Origin: a virus
Taxonomy: Duplodnaviria > Heunggongvirae > Uroviricota > Caudoviricetes
IMG/VR virus record: IMGVR_UViG_2718218397_000005
Direction: 5' to 3' (one strand)
Length of the DNA stretch: 47,888 nt
A model generated the notes under the pieces. It made no database searches. It saw only the letters and a list, made by a program, of their open reading frames with translations, and was not told where the DNA came from. Shown here one piece after another: positions 8,833-46,869 of this stretch. The position numbers were made by a program, and so were the translations under genes. Each line of letters opens with the position of its first letter. The stretch's first letter is position 1.

Positions 8833-9504
8833 TCAACGACCAATCACCACAACCTGACCACCGTCCCCTTCGTCTGCCGTGCTGATCTCCTGAGAGACCA
8901 CCCGCGACCCCACGCGCATTTCACCGTACAGAACGGGCAGAACATTGCCCTGGGCAACCATGTTATCCAGTGAGGAGAAATAGGTGTTCTGCTTACCGTT
9001 ATCCGTTGTCTGTGTACGGGGAGTTCTGGCTTTCGGTGCCAGCATCTGCGCCACACCACCGAGCACCATACTGGCACCGAGAGAAAACAGGATGCCGGTC
9101 ATACCACCGGCCCCAATGGCTGCCCCCCATGCTGCAAGGGTGGCTCCGGCGGTAAAGAATGATCCGGCAATGGCGGCAGCCCCCAGGACAATCTGGAATA
9201 CGCCACCTGACTTGGCCCCGGCGACTCTGGGAACAATATGAATCACAGCGCCATCAGGCAGAGTCTCATGTAACTGAGCCGTTAACCCGGACGTGCTGAC
9301 GTCCCGCCCGGCAATCCGTACCTGATACCAGCCGTCGCTCAGTTTCTGACGAAACGCCGGGAGCTGTGTGGCCAGTGCCCGGATGGCTTCAGCCCCCGTT
9401 TTCACACGAAGGTCGATGCGGCGACCAAATCGTTGTAAATCCCCGTAAAGGCAGATGCGCGCCATGCCCGGTGACGCCAGAGGGAGTGTGTGCGTCGCTG
9501 CCAT
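8833..9504 (-). CDS. I: Tail assembly protein I
   Basis: 223-aa ORF (MAATHTLPLASPGMARICLYGDLQRFGRR...), lambda gpI-like; 60-nt gap to J and 103-nt overlap with K as in lambda. Confidence 0.85.
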   Translation of the reverse strand: MAATHTLPLASPGMARICLYGDLQRFGRRIDLRVKTGAEAIRALATQLPAFRQKLSDGWYQVRIAGRDVSTSGLTAQLHETLPDGAVIHIVPRVAGAKSGGVFQIVLGAAAIAGSFFTAGATLAAWGAAIGAGGMTGILFSLGASMVLGGVAQMLAPKARTPRTQTTDNGKQNTYFSSLDNMVAQGNVLPVLYGEMRVGSRVVSQEISTADEGDGGQVVVIGR

Positions 9505-10145
9505 TTGTCGGTGTACCTCTCTCGTTTGCTCAGTTGTTCAGGAATATGGTGCAGCAGCTCGCCGTCGCCGCAGTAAATTGCGGCGTGATTCGGCACCGAT
9601 GAACCAAAACAGCACAGCAGCACATCGCCCGGCTGTGCCGCTGACAACGGCACCTGATACAGCCCCGTCGCCTCCAGATTATCCAGATAGAGATTCTGGC
9701 CGTTACGCCACCAGTCATCCTCACGATGAAAGTCCGGCATCTCAATCCCCGCCAGATGATAAGCATCCCGGAACAGTGTGTAACAGTCCGTCACACCGTG
9801 CTCAAAGCGCCGCCCGGTGAGATGCGGCACACAGCGGAACTTATGAATCGTCCCCCGGCAGACCAGCCACCACGGCAAATCACTCTGCACCTGCAGCCGC
9901 CGGTCGGCCTCACTCAGCCAGGGTAGACCACCGGGGTGGCTGTGGACCAGCGCCACAATCTCACCCTGCATTTCTGCCTGCAGCCAGTCTTCCGGCGACA
10001 TACGGAAATACGCCTCCGGCTCACCGGAGATATTCACGCAGGGGAAATATCTTTCCCCCTCCGGCGTGCTTACCACGAAGCCGCACGACTCCGCTGGCGC
10101 ACATCGCCGGGCGTGCGCCAGAATCGCTGATTCTGTCTGTGTCAT
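9402..10145 (-). CDS. K: Tail assembly protein K (JAB/MPN plus NlpC/P60 domains)
   Basis: 247-aa ORF starting 5 nt after L stop; JAMM-like E..HSHP..SEAD motif and later Cys/His of NlpC/P60; lambda-annotated K start corresponds to internal Met49 at 10001. Confidence 0.8.
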   Translation of the reverse strand: MTQTESAILAHARRCAPAESCGFVVSTPEGERYFPCVNISGEPEAYFRMSPEDWLQAEMQGEIVALVHSHPGGLPWLSEADRRLQVQSDLPWWLVCRGTIHKFRCVPHLTGRRFEHGVTDCYTLFRDAYHLAGIEMPDFHREDDWWRNGQNLYLDNLEATGLYQVPLSAAQPGDVLLCCFGSSVPNHAAIYCGDGELLHHIPEQLSKRERYTDKWQRRTHSLWRHRAWRASAFTGIYNDLVAASTFV

Positions 10146-14169: not shown

Positions 14170-14567
14170 GCAGAAACAGGCTCTGCGGGCCCGGCGTCCT
14201 CTGTCTGTTCAGGGGCATTATTCACCACAAACTCATACATACCAGACAGCCGGTACACCACGTTTTCAGCATGAGAAATTGCCTCCGTGGGCCAGGTGGT
14301 AAGCACTTCCTGCTCAATCTGTTTAACGGCTTCATTCATGGACGGCATCTGCGTCTTCTGCGGATGGTTATGCCACAGGGACATCGCCACCAGAAACGCG
14401 CCGGTTCTGATGGCGTCTTCCACAGTAAACTTCCGGTTGCTGTCTGACTCCGCCTGTTCTGCCTGCCGTTTCATCAGGGCGAGATGCTCAATGCGCTGCA
14501 GGGCTGACAGTTCAGAAAGCGTGACGGTCACACCGTTATGTTCAAATGATTCGGTTTTCAGGAACAT
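14145..14567 (-). CDS. G: Tail assembly chaperone G
   Basis: 140-aa ORF (MFLKTESFEHNGVTVTLSELSALQRIEHL...) ending ..AGKCSTVS; contains the slippery heptamer 6 codons before its stop. Confidence 0.9.
   Translation of the reverse strand: MFLKTESFEHNGVTVTLSELSALQRIEHLALMKRQAEQAESDSNRKFTVEDAIRTGAFLVAMSLWHNHPQKTQMPSMNEAVKQIEQEVLTTWPTEAISHAENVVYRLSGMYEFVVNNAPEQTEDAGPAEPVSAGKCSTVS
14163..14169 (-). promoter_or_regulatory. Programmed -1 ribosomal frameshift slippery site G GGA AAG (G to G-T)
   Basis: Minus-strand GGGAAAG (plus-strand CTTTCCC at 14163-14169) placed in the G frame as GCG GGA AAG, exactly where the T frame opens. Confidence 0.8.
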
Positions 14568-17117: not shown

Positions 17118-18143
17118 TTACGCCAGTTGTACGGACACGAACTCATCAGGGTCAGCCAGCAGCATCAGCGGTGCTGACTGAATCATGGTGAACTCACGCG
17201 CCGGATCGCCGGTGGTCACCCAGTTTTTCGGGTAACGGGCAGAGGCGTTAATGCCTTCGCGCTGTGCGTCCGCATCCTGAATGCAGCCATAGGTGCGCAG
17301 ACCGCGTGCCTGAGTGTTCCCCAGCACCATCGTGTTGTCCGGCAGGAAGTTCTTTTTGACGCCGTTTTCCACGTACTGTCCGGAATACACGACGATGGCC
17401 ACATCGCCATACATCCCCTTATAGGACACCGCTTTACCCAGGTCTTTCACCGCTGTCTCCAGCTCGGAATTAGAGCCACGACGGGTATCCAGCTTCTCCT
17501 TGACGGCTTTGAAGGAACGGAACAGCGCCCAGCCTTTCGGATCGAACACGATGATATTCACCACACCGCTGGCGTTCAGCGCGTAGGCTTCGATATCGTC
17601 GGTCGGGTCATACGTGGACTTGTCACGCTTGCTCCACTCCGTGCCGCCGGACTGCGTGATGTTATTCTCCTCACTGCGGCCCATATCCACCTCAACCGGA
17701 TCGAAGGCTTCACCGGTCATGGTGTATTTGCCCTTAAGCACGGCAGAAACTGCCTGCATCTCTTCGACCTGAGCAATAGCCAGCTCTTCGTCACGCATGT
17801 TCTGCATGATGATGCGACGGCGGCGGTAAGCCGGGTCCGCCAGATTCTGCGGATCTTCATCCGGCAGGCGACGCAGGGTCATCTGCGGATTCACTTCATG
17901 CTTCGGCTTGACATATCCCGGCGTAAATTCAGAGGTGGAGCCGCCACGGGAACGGATAACCTCACCGGAAACAATCGGCGAAACGTACAGCGCCATGTTT
18001 ACCAGTCCCGGAATTTGTGAGAGATAGACTTTCTCCGTGGTGAAGGGATAGCTCTCACGGAAAAAGAGACGCAGAAACAGCGGATCAAACTTAAATTTCT
18101 GCTCATTTGCCGCCAGCAGTTGGGCGGTTGTGTACATCGACAT
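17118..18143 (-). CDS. E: Major capsid protein E
   Basis: ORF 17118-18170; probable start MSMYTTAQLLAANEQKFKFDPLFLRLFFRE... (341 aa), lambda gpE-like. Confidence 0.9.
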   Translation of the reverse strand: MSMYTTAQLLAANEQKFKFDPLFLRLFFRESYPFTTEKVYLSQIPGLVNMALYVSPIVSGEVIRSRGGSTSEFTPGYVKPKHEVNPQMTLRRLPDEDPQNLADPAYRRRRIIMQNMRDEELAIAQVEEMQAVSAVLKGKYTMTGEAFDPVEVDMGRSEENNITQSGGTEWSKRDKSTYDPTDDIEAYALNASGVVNIIVFDPKGWALFRSFKAVKEKLDTRRGSNSELETAVKDLGKAVSYKGMYGDVAIVVYSGQYVENGVKKNFLPDNTMVLGNTQARGLRTYGCIQDADAQREGINASARYPKNWVTTGDPAREFTMIQSAPLMLLADPDEFVSVQLA

Positions 18144-18198: not shown

Positions 18199-18530
18199 TT
18201 AAACGATGCTGATTGCCGTTCCGGCAAACGCGGTCCGTTTTTTCGTCTCGTCGCTGGCAGCCTCCGGCCAGAGCACATCCTCATAACGGAACGTGCCGGA
18301 CTTGTAGAACGTCAGCGTGGTGCTGGTCTGGTCAGCAGCAACCGCAAGAATGCCAACGGCAGCACCGTCGGTGGTGCCATCCCACGCAACCAGCTTACGG
18401 CTGGAGGTGTCCAGCATCAGCGGGGTCATTGCAGGCGCTTTCGCACTCAATCCGCCGGGCGCAGTTGCGGTATGAGCCGGGTCACTGTTGCCTGCGGCTG
18501 GTAATGGGTAAAGGTTTCTTTGCTCGTCAT
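18199..18530 (-). pseudogene. D: Capsid decoration protein D, interrupted by a 1-nt deletion frameshift
   Basis: ATG at 18530 with SD AAGGGA encodes [13 protein letters not shown] then shifts out of frame (stop at 18447-18449); remaining gpD sequence [27 protein letters not shown]...AISIV continues in the adjacent frame to the stop at 18199; span is 332 nt, not a multiple of 3. Confidence 0.75.
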
Positions 18531-18539
18531 AAACATCCC

Positions 18540-19839
18540 TTACACTGGTGTGTTCAGCAAATCGTTAACGGCATCAGATGCCGGGTTACCTGCAGCCAGC
18601 GGTGCCGGTGCCCCCTGCATCAGACGATCCAGCGCAGTGTCACTGCGCGCCTGTGCACTCTGTGGTGCTGCGGCCAGAATGCGGCGGGCCGTTTTCACGG
18701 TCATACCGGGGGTTTCTGCCAGCACGCGTGCCTGTTCTTCGCGTCCGTGAGCCTCCTCACAGTTGAGGATCCCCATAATGCGGCTGTTTTCTGCCGCAAC
18801 CGCTGCGGTGATCTGCGCGTTCACGTCCGGCTGCGCCGCGCTGGCGTTCTCGCCCTCCGTCGCTGGCACCACGTCAGTAACGTCAGCCTGCGAAGCAGTG
18901 GCTGAAACAGTTGTTGATTGAGTCTCTTTGGTCATTCGCCCTCCTGAGAGACGGGATTTACGTGCATCCAGTGCATCACGCATGACGGTGATCGCATCGG
19001 TGCTGTTAACAAGTTCATCAGCCAGTCCGGCATCAATGGCCTCCTGACCGCTGTACACTGCAGCCTCGGTATCCAGCACAGCCTGCACGGACAGGCCGGT
19101 ATATGCCGACACCTTCTGCGCAAACATCCGGCGGGTTGCGTCCATCCGGGACTGCAGTGTCTCCCGGACGTCATCCGGAAGATGGCTGTAGGGGTTGCCA
19201 TCCACCTTATGGCTGCCGCTGTAAATCAGCGTGATTTCCACACCCTGTTTCTCCAGCGCAGCACCGTAATTACTGTGAGCCATCATGACGCCGATGGAGC
19301 CTGTCCGGGCGGTCTGCGTGACCAGACGCCGGGAGGCGGCACTGGCAAGCAACTGACCTGCACTGCAGTTCATGTCGTTGGCAAGCGCCCATACCGGTTT
19401 TATGTCACGCACACGGGCGATGATGTCAGCGCAGTCAAATGCCCCCGCCACCATCCCGCCGGGCGTGTCCATATCGAGCAGAATGCCGTCCACCATCGGA
19501 TCGCTGGCAGCCTGTTGCAGACGGGCGATAATGCCGTTGTAACCGGTCATCCCCGAGTACGGCTGCAGCGCCCGCGTCCGGCTGACCAGCGTGCCGGACA
19601 CCGGCAGCACGGCGATGCCGTTCATGACCTGATAACTGCGGGCCTGTCGTGGTCCGTCATCATCACCGGATAATGCCAGCGTCGCGAGTGCCTCCTGGGC
19701 AGTCAGGCTGTCGCCGGACACCGCATCCGTCAGGCGGCTGATCCCAAGCTGGCCTGCAAGCGCACAAAAGAAAACCCGCGCATAGGCGGGTTCAAGCATC
19801 AGCGGCTCATTAAAGGCCATGCTGGCAATATGCGGGAGA

Positions 19840-19859
<20 letters not shown>
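18540..19859 (-). CDS. C: Prohead protease/scaffold C (S49 peptidase family; Nu3 scaffold is the in-frame C-terminal part)
   Basis: ORF 18540-19994; lambda gpC-like sequence begins at GTG (V)[20 protein letters not shown]... giving 439 aa; 20-nt overlap with B as in lambda. Confidence 0.85.
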
Positions 19860-29743: not shown

Positions 29744-31048
<1,305 letters not shown>

Positions 31049-31063
31049 CCACTACAGTAGCCA

Positions 31064-31519
31064 TTACGCCTCCTGCTTGTCGCGGAGCAGCTGGAACTCG
31101 CAGCTCTGCGGAATAGTCAGGTGGCAGCCAATATTCACCGCCCAGGCTTCAACCTTACACAGGAAGACATACATCTCTCCGGTATCAAGATCGGAGGTAT
31201 GGCGTAACGACTGGATAGTGGTGATATCACCGGTTACGACATCAACCAGGTCTTTGGTTTCATAACCGAGATATGTGTGTTTGAGAGCATCTTTTACCCA
31301 AGCTGGAGTAGCGAACGTTTTACCCCTGCTGATGAGGTATTCACTGATTTCGCTGTACCACATGTGGCTGAGTGCATTCTGGGAAAGACTGCGTTTCTCA
31401 CGCCACGGTTTAAGCACCATGCGAAAGCATTTGCCCTCCTCCAGATAAGGCTGGATCTGCCGACCGATAGCGGTGAAGTTACCGCGATGTAATTTGATGC
31501 CATCTTGTGGGAGATTCAC
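31064..31519 (-). CDS. ybcN: Nin-region protein YbcN-like
   Basis: 151-aa ORF (GTG start) [55 protein letters not shown]... Confidence 0.75.
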
Positions 31520-34486: not shown

Positions 34487-34680
34487 GGTGACACCTGCTA
34501 ACGTATGCTTTTATAAACCTTAGTGGTGGGATATAATTTTTGTTTAATTTTTATTTAAAAAGACAATTAAGGTCACATTATCTTGAATATACAACAATAA
34601 TCGTATTGCAATTTTCTTACGCCATAATCTTGAAAGCACAAAAGAATACATAAAAAAATAAAGACATTAACAAAAAGCAT

Positions 34681-34711
34681 AAAACGAGGCTCATATAAAT
34701 ATAAGAGCCTC
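34681..34711 (-). terminator. Rho-independent terminator downstream of emrE
   Basis: Stem GAGGCTC (34686-34692) / GAGCCTC (34705-34711), AT-rich loop, followed on the minus strand by GTTTT. Confidence 0.55.
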
Positions 34712-38836: not shown

Positions 38837-39298
38837 ATGAGAATACTAGGTGTTAGGGCGGCGCCCAAAGTTACATCTTTTGTTGTATATTGCACTGATG
38901 AGTCTGCACTCAAATGTGTTGATGTTATTAAAATACCTTCGACCTTAGACACACCAGAAAAATTAAAGTATGTGCGAAATAACATCCTCGACATTCTTAA
39001 TTTATATAATGTTGAATTAGCTGCTATACGCGTTACTGAATCAAACTCTGATAATCTTAGCATTGACCGCCTTTATATAGAAGCTGTTATTCAAGAAGCA
39101 TTTTCAAGCAGTGATGTAAGAAGATATTACACCATTAGAAAATCTGGTATGAAGTCATCATTGAACCTAACAGAGATCGAGTATAAAGAAATATTGAAGT
39201 CACACCGTAATATAAATGGAATCGATAATTCTGGTTTTACAACTGAAACAAATGAAGCTGTTTTGGCTGCACTATCTGCGGAGGTAAGGGGATGCTGA
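38837..39298 (+). CDS. Hypothetical protein, first gene of a cI-linked cassette (rexA position)
   Basis: 153-aa ORF MRILGVRAAPKVTSFVVYCTDESALKCVDVIKIPSTLDT...; AT-rich; 7-nt overlap with the kinase gene. Confidence 0.55.
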   Translation: MRILGVRAAPKVTSFVVYCTDESALKCVDVIKIPSTLDTPEKLKYVRNNILDILNLYNVELAAIRVTESNSDNLSIDRLYIEAVIQEAFSSSDVRRYYTIRKSGMKSSLNLTEIEYKEILKSHRNINGIDNSGFTTETNEAVLAALSAEVRGC

Positions 39299-40338
39299 CT
39301 CCATACAAAAGAGCTGATGTAGCATTCGAATGGATTCGTGATCTAGAAGAACAGGGTTGTTTTTCAAAAGTATATCTGGCTCATGACAGACACCTAGCTC
39401 ATGACTTGGTGATTAAAGAAATAGAAAAAAAAGAAAACATTAACCACGACGACTACTTTAATGAAGCAAGGCTTCTCTATAAACATGCACATCCAAATAT
39501 TGTGCAAGTTCAGTATGCTGCTCAATGTGAGAGCAATATCTATATAGCCATGCCATTTTATCATAATGGTTCGCTAAACCAATTAATAAAAAAGATTAAT
39601 CTTACGAGCAGGGAGATAATACGGTATTCTATTCAATTTTTAAGTGGGCTTTATCATATACACTCAAAAGGTCTTATGCATTTTGATATAAAACCTAATA
39701 ACATCATGATATCAAACAGAAATGAGGCCATGCTATCTGACTTTGGATTGTCTCAGTTAGTCAATGAGGAATCGAGAGCTGCGCCTGAGTTTGGATATCA
39801 TTTTCATGTGCCACCGGAATATTTTTCTTTATCAACAAATGATTATAATTTCACATATGACATATATCAGGCAGGATTAACCATATATAGAATGTGTGTT
39901 GGATATGATAATTTTGAAAGAGAAAGATCTGCATTTAGAACGATTGAACAACTCAGAGAGTCGATAATTAATGGCTCCTATCCATTAAAAGAGTATCCTT
40001 CCCACATACATAAAAAATTGATAACAATAGTAAACAAATGCATTCATGTAGATCCAAATGAAAGATATCAATCCGTACTAGACGTACTAAACGATCTCTC
40101 AGCTATAAGTGATGGCGTTCTTGACTGGCGTCTACAGATGACAAAACCAACTAACGGCACATATGAATGGCAAAAAAAGTCTGGGGACGTTATACTGTCT
40201 ATAGTTTTTGACGCAGAAAATTCGTCTACTACTGGTTTTCGTTTATACGATGGTGGGCGGAAAAGGCGTGCTACGAACTTAACAATATCCTCAGGATGTA
40301 CCCCTACAAAACTGTATAGGTTATTAAAGGATAACTGA
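39292..40338 (+). CDS. stk: Eukaryotic-like (Hanks-type) protein kinase
   Basis: 348-aa ORF with beta3 Lys (LVIKEI), catalytic loop HFDIKPNN, DFG motif (LSDFGLS) and PPEYF activation-segment motif. Confidence 0.8.
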   Translation: MLTPYKRADVAFEWIRDLEEQGCFSKVYLAHDRHLAHDLVIKEIEKKENINHDDYFNEARLLYKHAHPNIVQVQYAAQCESNIYIAMPFYHNGSLNQLIKKINLTSREIIRYSIQFLSGLYHIHSKGLMHFDIKPNNIMISNRNEAMLSDFGLSQLVNEESRAAPEFGYHFHVPPEYFSLSTNDYNFTYDIYQAGLTIYRMCVGYDNFERERSAFRTIEQLRESIINGSYPLKEYPSHIHKKLITIVNKCIHVDPNERYQSVLDVLNDLSAISDGVLDWRLQMTKPTNGTYEWQKKSGDVILSIVFDAENSSTTGFRLYDGGRKRRATNLTISSGCTPTKLYRLLKDN

Positions 40339-40340
40339 TC

Positions 40341-40505
40341 ATGAAAAAGTGCGAGGAAGTAAGTAAGCTGCCTCGCAGACGTGATGCAGCATTAGCGGTT
40401 CCCTACAAAAAAGATGAGTTCATAAGCTCTTCTGATGACAAAAAATTTTCAAAGGCAAAAAATTTTGCATCTACATCTCTAAAAGATAAATACTTTAAGA
40501 TCTAG
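40341..40505 (+). CDS. Small Lys-rich ORF immediately after the kinase (speculative)
   Basis: Manually translated 54-aa ORF MKKCEEVSKLPRRRDAALAVPYKKDEFISSSDDKKFSKAKNFASTSLKDKYFKI; ATG 2 nt after kinase stop, AAGGA 9 nt upstream; stop abuts the terminator. Confidence 0.35.
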   Translation: MKKCEEVSKLPRRRDAALAVPYKKDEFISSSDDKKFSKAKNFASTSLKDKYFKI

Positions 40506-40532
40506 CCCGGCCACCGTGCCGGGTTTTCTTTT
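40506..40532 (+). terminator. Rho-independent terminator ending the cI-kinase operon
   Basis: Stem CCCGGC (40506-40511) / GCCGGG (40518-40523), 6-nt loop, then TTTTCTTTT. Confidence 0.7.
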
Positions 40533-40654
40533 GTCCCCTCCCCTCATCACACAAACCGTTCGAAAAACCACCACAACCTCCCTTCAGTTATCGCTATGCG
40601 ATGCAAGTCACAAAATTAATTCTTTTTGCTATCAAACAGTTAATATCAAAACAC

Positions 40655-40710
40655 ATCAATCAATAGCAATAAGTATTGATACCACCAATAGCAATAGCTA
40701 TTATCACCAT
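40655..40710 (+). promoter_or_regulatory. Putative OL operators and pL promoter
   Basis: Dyad ATCAATAgcaataagTATTGAT (40659-40680) and palindrome AATAGCTATT (40693-40702) share CAATAGCAA with OR; -35 TTGATA (40676-40681), 17-bp spacer, -10 TATTAT (40699-40704). Confidence 0.5.
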
Positions 40711-40777
40711 GTCGCAACAACACAACGATACGGCAACCGCCTGATTCACCGTTGCGATGACCGCTTAGATCCGCAGC

Positions 40778-41188
40778 TTGAATTTCGGCAGGCTCCGGGG
40801 AGTGCGAGGGGTGAAACGGACGCGTGAACGTCGGTGTGACCAGCTGAAATCAACTCAACACCTCATACCTCAGTCGCTTCAACGAGGCGGCTTAGTTATG
40901 ACAACCGGCGGCCATCCACCGCCTGAATACGCGCAGAAGTCTCTATATGTTCAGCAGCCCAGCTTACGGGCAGGAGTTTTTATGGTTCATCAACATTATG
41001 GAACGCAGACCGTTAATCGAGGTGCGGTCATGCCAGGAATGCTGGTCAAACACAAAGATGGTACCTGGACTGCATCAGCTAATTTACGCGGACGGCTTTA
41101 TCTGCATCGCGGCATCGAGCGCACTTATACCCGTGATTTGCTCGTGGAAGTTTTTCTCGACGGACGCGGCAACGGCCTGAATCACTAA
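40778..41188 (+). CDS. Hypothetical protein, first ORF downstream of putative pL (N-like antiterminator candidate)
   Basis: 136-aa ORF; Arg-rich N-terminal segment [12 protein letters not shown] reminiscent of N-family RNA-binding motifs; alternative start Met41 (40898) has a GAGG SD; assignment tentative. Confidence 0.35.
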
Positions 41189-45667: not shown

Positions 45668-45904
45668 GAAGATGAATTTCGTTATTTAAATTTAATATAT
45701 CGGAGGCTTTTATCAGAACTTATACATAATACAAGCCCGATGGCTGTCACCAGACAGGAGCATCAATAACATTTGCCGTAGCGTACTGAAGAAGCACCGC
45801 GAAACGGTAACGCTGAGGGATTCACACCGACTCATTTAAGCCTGGCGATCGGCATGTTAAACGGCATCTTTAAGGAGCGATGAACATGAAAAGCAAAATC
45901 ATCA

Positions 45905-46247: not shown

Positions 46248-46526
46248 ATGTTCAGAATCATTTTTCCTAACACCTGGTACGTCGACCACCACGGCACTCC
46301 CTGCAAAATCCTGCGTTCTACCCACAACAAAGTTCACTACATCCGAAAAGGCAGAACATGTATCGCCAGCATGTTCCGCTTTAATCATGACTTTGAACCT
46401 GTGAATAAAGCTGATGCAGATCGGATAGCAGAAGAGATCGAAACGGCAGAACACATTAAGAAGTTACGTGACATGCGTTCAAAAAGCAGAGGTAACCATG
46501 GAATCATACAGCCTCACACTCGATGA
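46248..46526 (+). CDS. Hypothetical protein
   Basis: 92-aa ORF MFRIIFPNTWYVDHHGTPCKILRSTHNKVHYIRKGRTCIASM...; no recognised family. Confidence 0.5.
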   Translation: MFRIIFPNTWYVDHHGTPCKILRSTHNKVHYIRKGRTCIASMFRFNHDFEPVNKADADRIAEEIETAEHIKKLRDMRSKSRGNHGIIQPHTR

Positions 46527-46869
46527 GGCCTGTCAGTTTCTCAAGATATCCAGACCTACCGCTACCAACTGGATACGAACAGGCCGCCTACAGGCAACAC
46601 GCAAAGACCCCACTAAACCAAAATCTCCTTACCTCACAACGCGACAAGCCTGCATTGCGGCGCTTCAGTCTCCGCTGCATACTGTCCAGGTGAGCGCGGG
46701 TGATGGCATAACAGAGGAAAGAAAATGTCACTCTTCCGCAGAAATGAAATATGGTATGCCTCGTATTCGCTCCCGGGCGGGAAACGAATTAAGGAATCTC
46801 TTGGCACAAAGGACAAGCGGCAAGCTCAGGAGTTGCACGACAAGCGAAAAGCAGAACTCTGGCGAGTAG
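46498..46869 (+). CDS. xis: Excisionase-like (AlpA/Xis-type HTH) protein
   Basis: ORF 46468-46869; probable start [31 protein letters not shown].. after GAGGT SD; reading frame runs 145 nt into int, so the C-terminal part may be non-native. Confidence 0.55.

Follow-up and report, generated by a model that had tools for sequence, protein, structure and literature searches.

A lambda-type head decoration gene, D (FORC41_RS18470), lies on the minus strand at 18199-18530 of the window, by which we mean the whole stretch of 47,888 nucleotides that was analysed. Its upstream neighbour is C, the S49 protease/scaffold gene (18540-19859), and its downstream neighbour is E, the gene of the major capsid protein (17118-18143). 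Both neighbours are intact, are found on the same strand and are 99.8% identical to their lambda counterparts, and the position of D between C/Nu3 and E fits the gene order of the D family. Members of this family bind as trimers at the three-fold sites of the capsid and stabilise the expanded head. According to both the PGAP annotation and the alignment to lambda D, the gene is frameshifted in the record.

The start of the gene is the same as in lambda, with an ATG at 18530 preceded by the Shine-Dalgarno-like sequence AAGGGA (18541-18536). From this ATG the first 13 residues of gpD are read, followed by 14 out-of-frame codons and a premature TGA at 18449-18447, which closes an N-terminal frame of 27 codons in total. 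The rest of gpD, ending in AISIV, continues in the neighbouring frame to a TAA at 18199, and the 13 N-terminal and the 97 remaining codons are thus in different frames. The neighbouring frame is open from 18564. It had been predicted to lack a start codon, which is true upstream of the junction, where there is no ATG, GTG or TTG, but not further down, where there are an internal TTG at 18450 and ATG codons at 18429 and 18417. The TTG opens an ORF of 83 codons (18199-18450, minus strand) corresponding to gpD residues 28-110, and the 83-residue product matches the Pfam family PF02924 (HDPD) with an E-value of 5.3e-17 over profile positions 29-113 of 116.

The original prediction, made from the letters of the DNA, had correctly identified which gene is hit, where, and by what type of change, and had proposed an alignment to lambda D as a check. 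The alignment bears it out: a single gap and a single substitution separate the two sequences, which agree at 331 of 333 nucleotide positions (99.4% DNA identity). The gap is one G lost from a GGG at Gln13-Gly14, so that lambda has CAG-GGC and the window CAG-GC on the minus strand; on the plus strand this is seen as CC at 18491-18492 instead of the CCC found in lambda and in all other E. coli copies. The start-to-stop length is 332 nt as compared to 333 nt in lambda, and the start codon, the Shine-Dalgarno sequence, the 13 and 14 codons and the TGA are also as predicted. The substitution, ACC to ACT at 18463, is synonymous (Thr) in the D frame, is located 28 bp from the deletion and is private to FORC_041, the strain from which the record comes. 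An uninterrupted ORF of about 110 codons, with the N-terminal capsid-binding arm, is absent from the record and present only after one G is restored, and the protein translated from the repaired gene is 100% identical to lambda gpD. Judged from its sequence, D of this prophage is an ordinary gene of the lambda type.

The prophage and its setting

The window is identical to positions 3509182-3557069 of the chromosome of E. coli FORC_041 (NZ_CP016628.1), a food isolate from Seoul. In RefSeq, PGAP lists D as a pseudogene, "head decoration protein, frameshifted", and the lesion is therefore already on public record. The prophage is located at the tRNA-Arg/intD site. Its early and lysis region is of the DLP12 type, with emrE, ybcK, ybcN, rusA, quuD, essD, rrrD and nohD, and adjoins a head-tail module nearly identical to that of lambda. 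The borders of the element are 47-bp direct repeats of the 3' end of the tRNA-Arg gene (att), which flank the window at record positions 3504094-3504140 (L007:44913-44959) and 3557083-3557129 (L005:14-60). There are 52,989 bp between them, including ompT and a tail-fibre-assembly remnant. As measured between the att repeats, the prophage of about 53 kb has about 109% of the lambda length, which reaches or exceeds what lambda can package.

All other head and tail genes had been predicted to keep the length of their lambda counterparts. This holds for the genes from Nu1 to I, which are 98.7-100% identical to lambda without any indel in a coding sequence, but not for J, lom or the side tail fibre genes, whose sequences depart from lambda, and the annotated K exceeds that of lambda by 144 nt.

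Several lesions are shared with E. coli JNE082640 (NZ_AP027206.1), which carries a near-identical sister prophage. An IS3-family element sits in the 5' part of ninE (29779-31064) in both, and in the window the NinE profile match starts only at position 25 and is below the Pfam cutoff. Upstream of intD there is a xis-like HTH ORF (46468-46869) which matches HTH_17 only at positions 2-32 of 51, is called incomplete by PGAP and is common to both strains. The frameshifted ylcJ (34544-34694), a frameshifted ZapA-like gene (45699-45883) and a frameshifted sfmD (L005:2516-5124) are also identical in FORC_041 and JNE082640; by this comparison they are pseudogenes inherited by both strains or products of the annotation, and not specific to one assembly.

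Some further features of the element were observed. The IS3 element is placed upstream of quuD, which codes for the Q-like antiterminator, within the nin region, and it may have a polar effect on the expression of the late genes. With its incomplete xis-like ORF the prophage may be excision-defective, like DLP12 of K-12. In the immunity region a serine/threonine kinase gene (39292-40338) is found at the place of rex in lambda, and it is followed by 640 bp without an annotated gene (40339-40982), where an N-like antiterminator would be expected.

Distribution of the lesion and of other one-base indels

D copies are carried by 3,042 of the 5,426 complete E. coli genomes, 4,280 copies altogether, and the 61-mer that spans the junction occurs in only one of them, which is FORC_041 itself. 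No IMG/VR contig carries the 61-mer. Neither in the complete E. coli genomes, nor in IMG/VR, nor in look-ups of the exact protein in public assemblies was there a second occurrence of the D lesion. The sister prophage in JNE082640, including its IS3 insertion, can be compared with the window over 47.9 kb and differs by 10 substitutions and one indel, which is the D deletion; its own D gene is a single intact ORF (WP_001297109.1). Among 4,276 copies, none is as much as 99% identical to a repaired 78-mer with both ACT and GGG, and no record has the ACT at 18463 together with an intact GGG. Given 10 substitutions in 47.9 kb, the probability that this private C to T change would lie within 28 bp of the deletion by chance is roughly 1%.

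The exact-protein look-ups, made with the truncated products, did reveal other disrupted D genes in public assemblies. The changes are +C at 36, +T at 22, delC31, +ATTA at 30, delG72, delC78 and delA93, and some of the disruptions are N-gaps or contig ends. A mutational hotspot or a phase-variable run at the GGG was considered and rejected, since these lesions differ from the one in the window and from each other in position, and are scattered. The indels, at nucleotides 22-93 of lambda-type D genes, come from several draft, metagenome and Logan assemblies (L010, L015-L019, L021). In some of them the portal or protease genes are broken up as well, a hint that these assemblies are error-prone.

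A general excess of indels inside the window, as a sign of a poor assembly, was not seen; over 47.9 kb the D deletion is the only one relative to JNE082640. Because the window alone looked clean in this way, the comparison of FORC_041 and JNE082640 was widened to eight blocks with 397,889 aligned bp. Over this length the two chromosomes differ by 49 substitutions, of which 31 are transitions, and by eight one-base indels. Six of the eight indels frameshift a gene in FORC_041 only, and no gene was frameshifted only in JNE082640 across the same aligned length.

The six genes are D, a DUF1778 antitoxin-like gene, a TPR gene, lacI, lacZ and chiP, and all of those outside the prophage are intact in JNE082640. 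The DUF1778 gene has an additional A at record position 3668550 (L027:11481) and the TPR gene one at 3669589 (L027:12520); lacI lacks a C at 3747481 (L031:40412), lacZ lacks a G at 3749427 (L031:42358), and chiP has an additional A at 3371157 (L033:11976). The uniqueness of the FORC_041 allele was tested for four of these genes, and in all four it was found in a single genome: one of 1,369 for the DUF1778 gene, one of 1,296 for the TPR gene, one of 4,737 for lacI and one of 5,342 for lacZ. The two remaining indels do not break a gene in FORC_041 only. One is a T missing from an intergenic T-run in FORC_041, an allele present in two of 3,288 genomes, and the other is an AA/AAA difference in a prophage remnant where FORC_041 has the common allele (AA, 2,486 of 3,447 records) and JNE082640 is the variant.

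All three insertions in FORC_041, in the DUF1778, TPR and chiP genes, change GAAC to GAAAC, and the deletions are in runs of G, C or T. The GAAC/GAAAC context may reflect a systematic, perhaps methylation-related, sequencing artefact. The indel for which JNE082640 is the variant (L007:48406) has the same GAAC/GAAAC context with reversed polarity.

The frameshift in the DUF1778 gene would cut its protein at codon 73 of 103, with the loss of the last 31 residues, and the adjacent GNAT gene is intact. Pairs of DUF1778 and GNAT genes are known as toxin-antitoxin systems. If this pair is an active one, it is unlikely that a truncated DUF1778 protein together with an intact GNAT protein would be tolerated.

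Outside the prophage, FORC_041 has unique indels of one base that break a gene at a rate of about 1.5 per 100 kb. At this rate roughly 0.8 such artefacts would be predicted in a prophage of 53 kb, and real indels, as estimated from the few substitutions specific to the lineage there, should be no more numerous.

Origin of the D frameshift

We consider it probable that the deletion in D is an uncorrected consensus error in the FORC_041 record. The loss of one G from the GGG would then have arisen in the sequencing or assembly of FORC_041 and be absent from the DNA of the strain, the real prophage would encode a normal gpD of 110 residues, and no biological mechanism would lie behind the frameshift. 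This reading is favoured because no assembly but this one has the lesion, not even that of the near-identical sister, and because equally unique one-base indels break conserved genes in the same assembly and none in JNE082640. The truncated DUF1778 gene beside an intact GNAT gene points the same way, provided that the pair is an active toxin-antitoxin system. The pattern of the changes, with GAAC to GAAAC insertions and deletions in G, C or T runs, also looks systematic, and we infer that the other one-base indels found only in FORC_041 come, like that in D, from sequencing or assembly. There is circumstantial evidence for an error in the sibling genome FORC_014, produced by the same centre in the same year: PacBio RS II was its only platform and HGAP3 its assembler, and no short reads were used (PMC5114773). 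No publication or reads for FORC_041 (CP016628) were found in a literature search, and the error is thus one that we infer from the comparisons above.

The case resembles the residual indel errors of bacterial assemblies made from long reads only, which PGAP reports as "frameshifted", in being a single-base change in a short run, confined to one assembly and accompanied by other unique indels. It differs from them in the run of only three bases and in the private substitution 28 bp away, and a long-read platform is suggested by the sibling genome. The original prediction had itself named a sequencing error as the alternative to a real lesion, and it is this alternative that the evidence favours, but the homopolymer in which it had placed the error is not a classic long one, and the shortness of the run weakens the case for an error. 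The main counterpoint is the private transition: consensus sequences from long reads seldom contain substitution errors, and its pairing with the deletion could instead stem from a genuine clustered mutation. The ratio of indels to substitutions, 8:49, is furthermore not far from the raw mutational input, and a prophage gene is a place where a real inactivating indel can be tolerated.

These points leave some room for a real deletion, which we regard as possible though rather unlikely. It would be a recent loss of function in D, private to the lineage, and would have struck a prophage already in decay. Translation would stop after 27 codons, there would be no functional gpD, the expanded capsids holding about 53 kb of DNA would not be stabilised, and no stable infectious particles would be formed. 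The phenotype of D loss of function has been known since the 1970s. The lesions which the prophage has in common with JNE082640, in ninE (IS3), the xis-like ORF, ylcJ and the ZapA-like gene, suggest that selection on D is probably relaxed, and so does the length of the element between the att sites. Independent D lesions in other public assemblies are also in line with a real loss, and the transition 28 bp from the deletion would fit one clustered mutational event. On the other hand, no second genome has the lesion, unique one-base indels of the same assembly affect lacI, lacZ, chiP and the DUF1778 and TPR genes where the sister has none, and the number of artefacts expected in the prophage is no smaller than that of real indels.

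The consequences of a D null are well documented in lambda: gpD is needed for full-length genomes, and phages deficient in D cannot package more than 82% of the genome length and are sensitive to EDTA (PMC3745828). A real deletion would be comparable to Dam15, the laboratory amber null used in display systems, as another null by premature termination with the same expected phenotype (PMC3745828). Dam15, however, is an amber codon at residue 68 which is rescued by host suppressors, while the lesion in the window shifts the frame at codon 14, is not known to have any route of suppression and is seen in one assembly. The original prediction that this prophage would be unable to make stable particles therefore agrees with lambda genetics as far as a real D null is concerned (PMC3745828), but drawing that conclusion from this D gene is probably unwarranted, the lesion and the other indels being unique to the assembly. 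A real deletion would be a plain null allele of D and one further step of ordinary prophage decay.

It is also conceivable that the deletion is real and D is rescued in translation, either by a -1 slip at CAG-G, giving wild-type gpD, or by termination and reinitiation at the TTG at 18450 or the ATG at 18429, giving an N-truncated but still working gpD. We find this very improbable. The arrangement has some features that would suit reinitiation, as the premature TGA overlaps the TTG of the D frame as TTGA, with the ATG 18 nt downstream, and as PF02924 is still recognised in the 83-residue product. Neither of these internal starts, however, has a well-spaced Shine-Dalgarno sequence, and a product from residue 28 would lack the N-terminal arm and the start of the beta-tulip core (PMC5701804; bioRxiv 10.1101/216911). 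On the capsid this arm forms a beta-strand that staples neighbouring gpE subunits (PMC5701804; bioRxiv 10.1101/216911), and a functional truncated gpD from either start is, with the gpE-binding arm missing, unlikely.

As for a slip, the overlap zone of 118 nt in which it would have to take place contains no X XXY YYZ heptamer, no XXXYYY and no homopolymer of five or more. Nor is the lesion conserved in any relative, as the two-frame arrangement occurs in one record of the 4,280 D copies and the sister has a single ORF. A programmed -1 frameshift in D was rejected on these grounds, the lack of a slippery heptamer or long run and the lack of conservation. The late operon of lambda does contain a programmed -1 frameshift, in G/GT, and the two cases are alike in having a structural gene in two overlapping frames. 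The G/GT site, however, has the slippery heptamer GGGAAAG, which is conserved across lambdoid phages and is present here at 14169-14163, and the D site has neither slippery sequence nor conservation. A true rescue would be a case from nature in which translation restores the function of an essential capsid gene, and in a weaker version the strain would be a natural D-null lysogen of the lambda type with Mg-dependent, EDTA-sensitive particles.

Taken together, an assembly artefact is the most likely cause of the D frameshift, with an ordinary pseudogene as the alternative, and nothing points to a new mechanism. The lesion has little biological weight either way, and its value is one of caution. 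Because the record appears to carry about 1.5 unique gene-breaking indels per 100 kb, lacZ and lacI included, genes called frameshifted in FORC_041 should not be read as biology without confirmation at the level of reads.

One-base changes in other lambda genes

There is a precedent in lambda for a real one-base frameshift that inactivates a structural gene in a single lineage. Hendrix and Duda reportedly described in 1992 that a one-base deletion in stf of lambda PaPa divides the gene for the side tail fibre into two ORFs, orf-401 and orf-314. The lambda record shows this division, and the window has a single tail fibre gene of 2,961 nt. The stf lesion differs from that in D in being experimentally verified, and it is tolerated as the side fibres are dispensable, whereas the putative lesion here affects a gene that a phage with a full-length genome requires.

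A one-base difference was also observed in K, where the alignment of 9402-10145 of the window to lambda (L002:14133-14875) shows an extra G in the prophage at lambda position 14267. K is here an ORF of 744 nt that starts just after L, and the lambda annotation has 600 nt and a gap of 148 nt. On this alignment, either lambda PaPa or its reference sequence from 1982 is frameshifted. Upstream of Nu1 there is one further difference of 1 nt from lambda, at lambda position 139.
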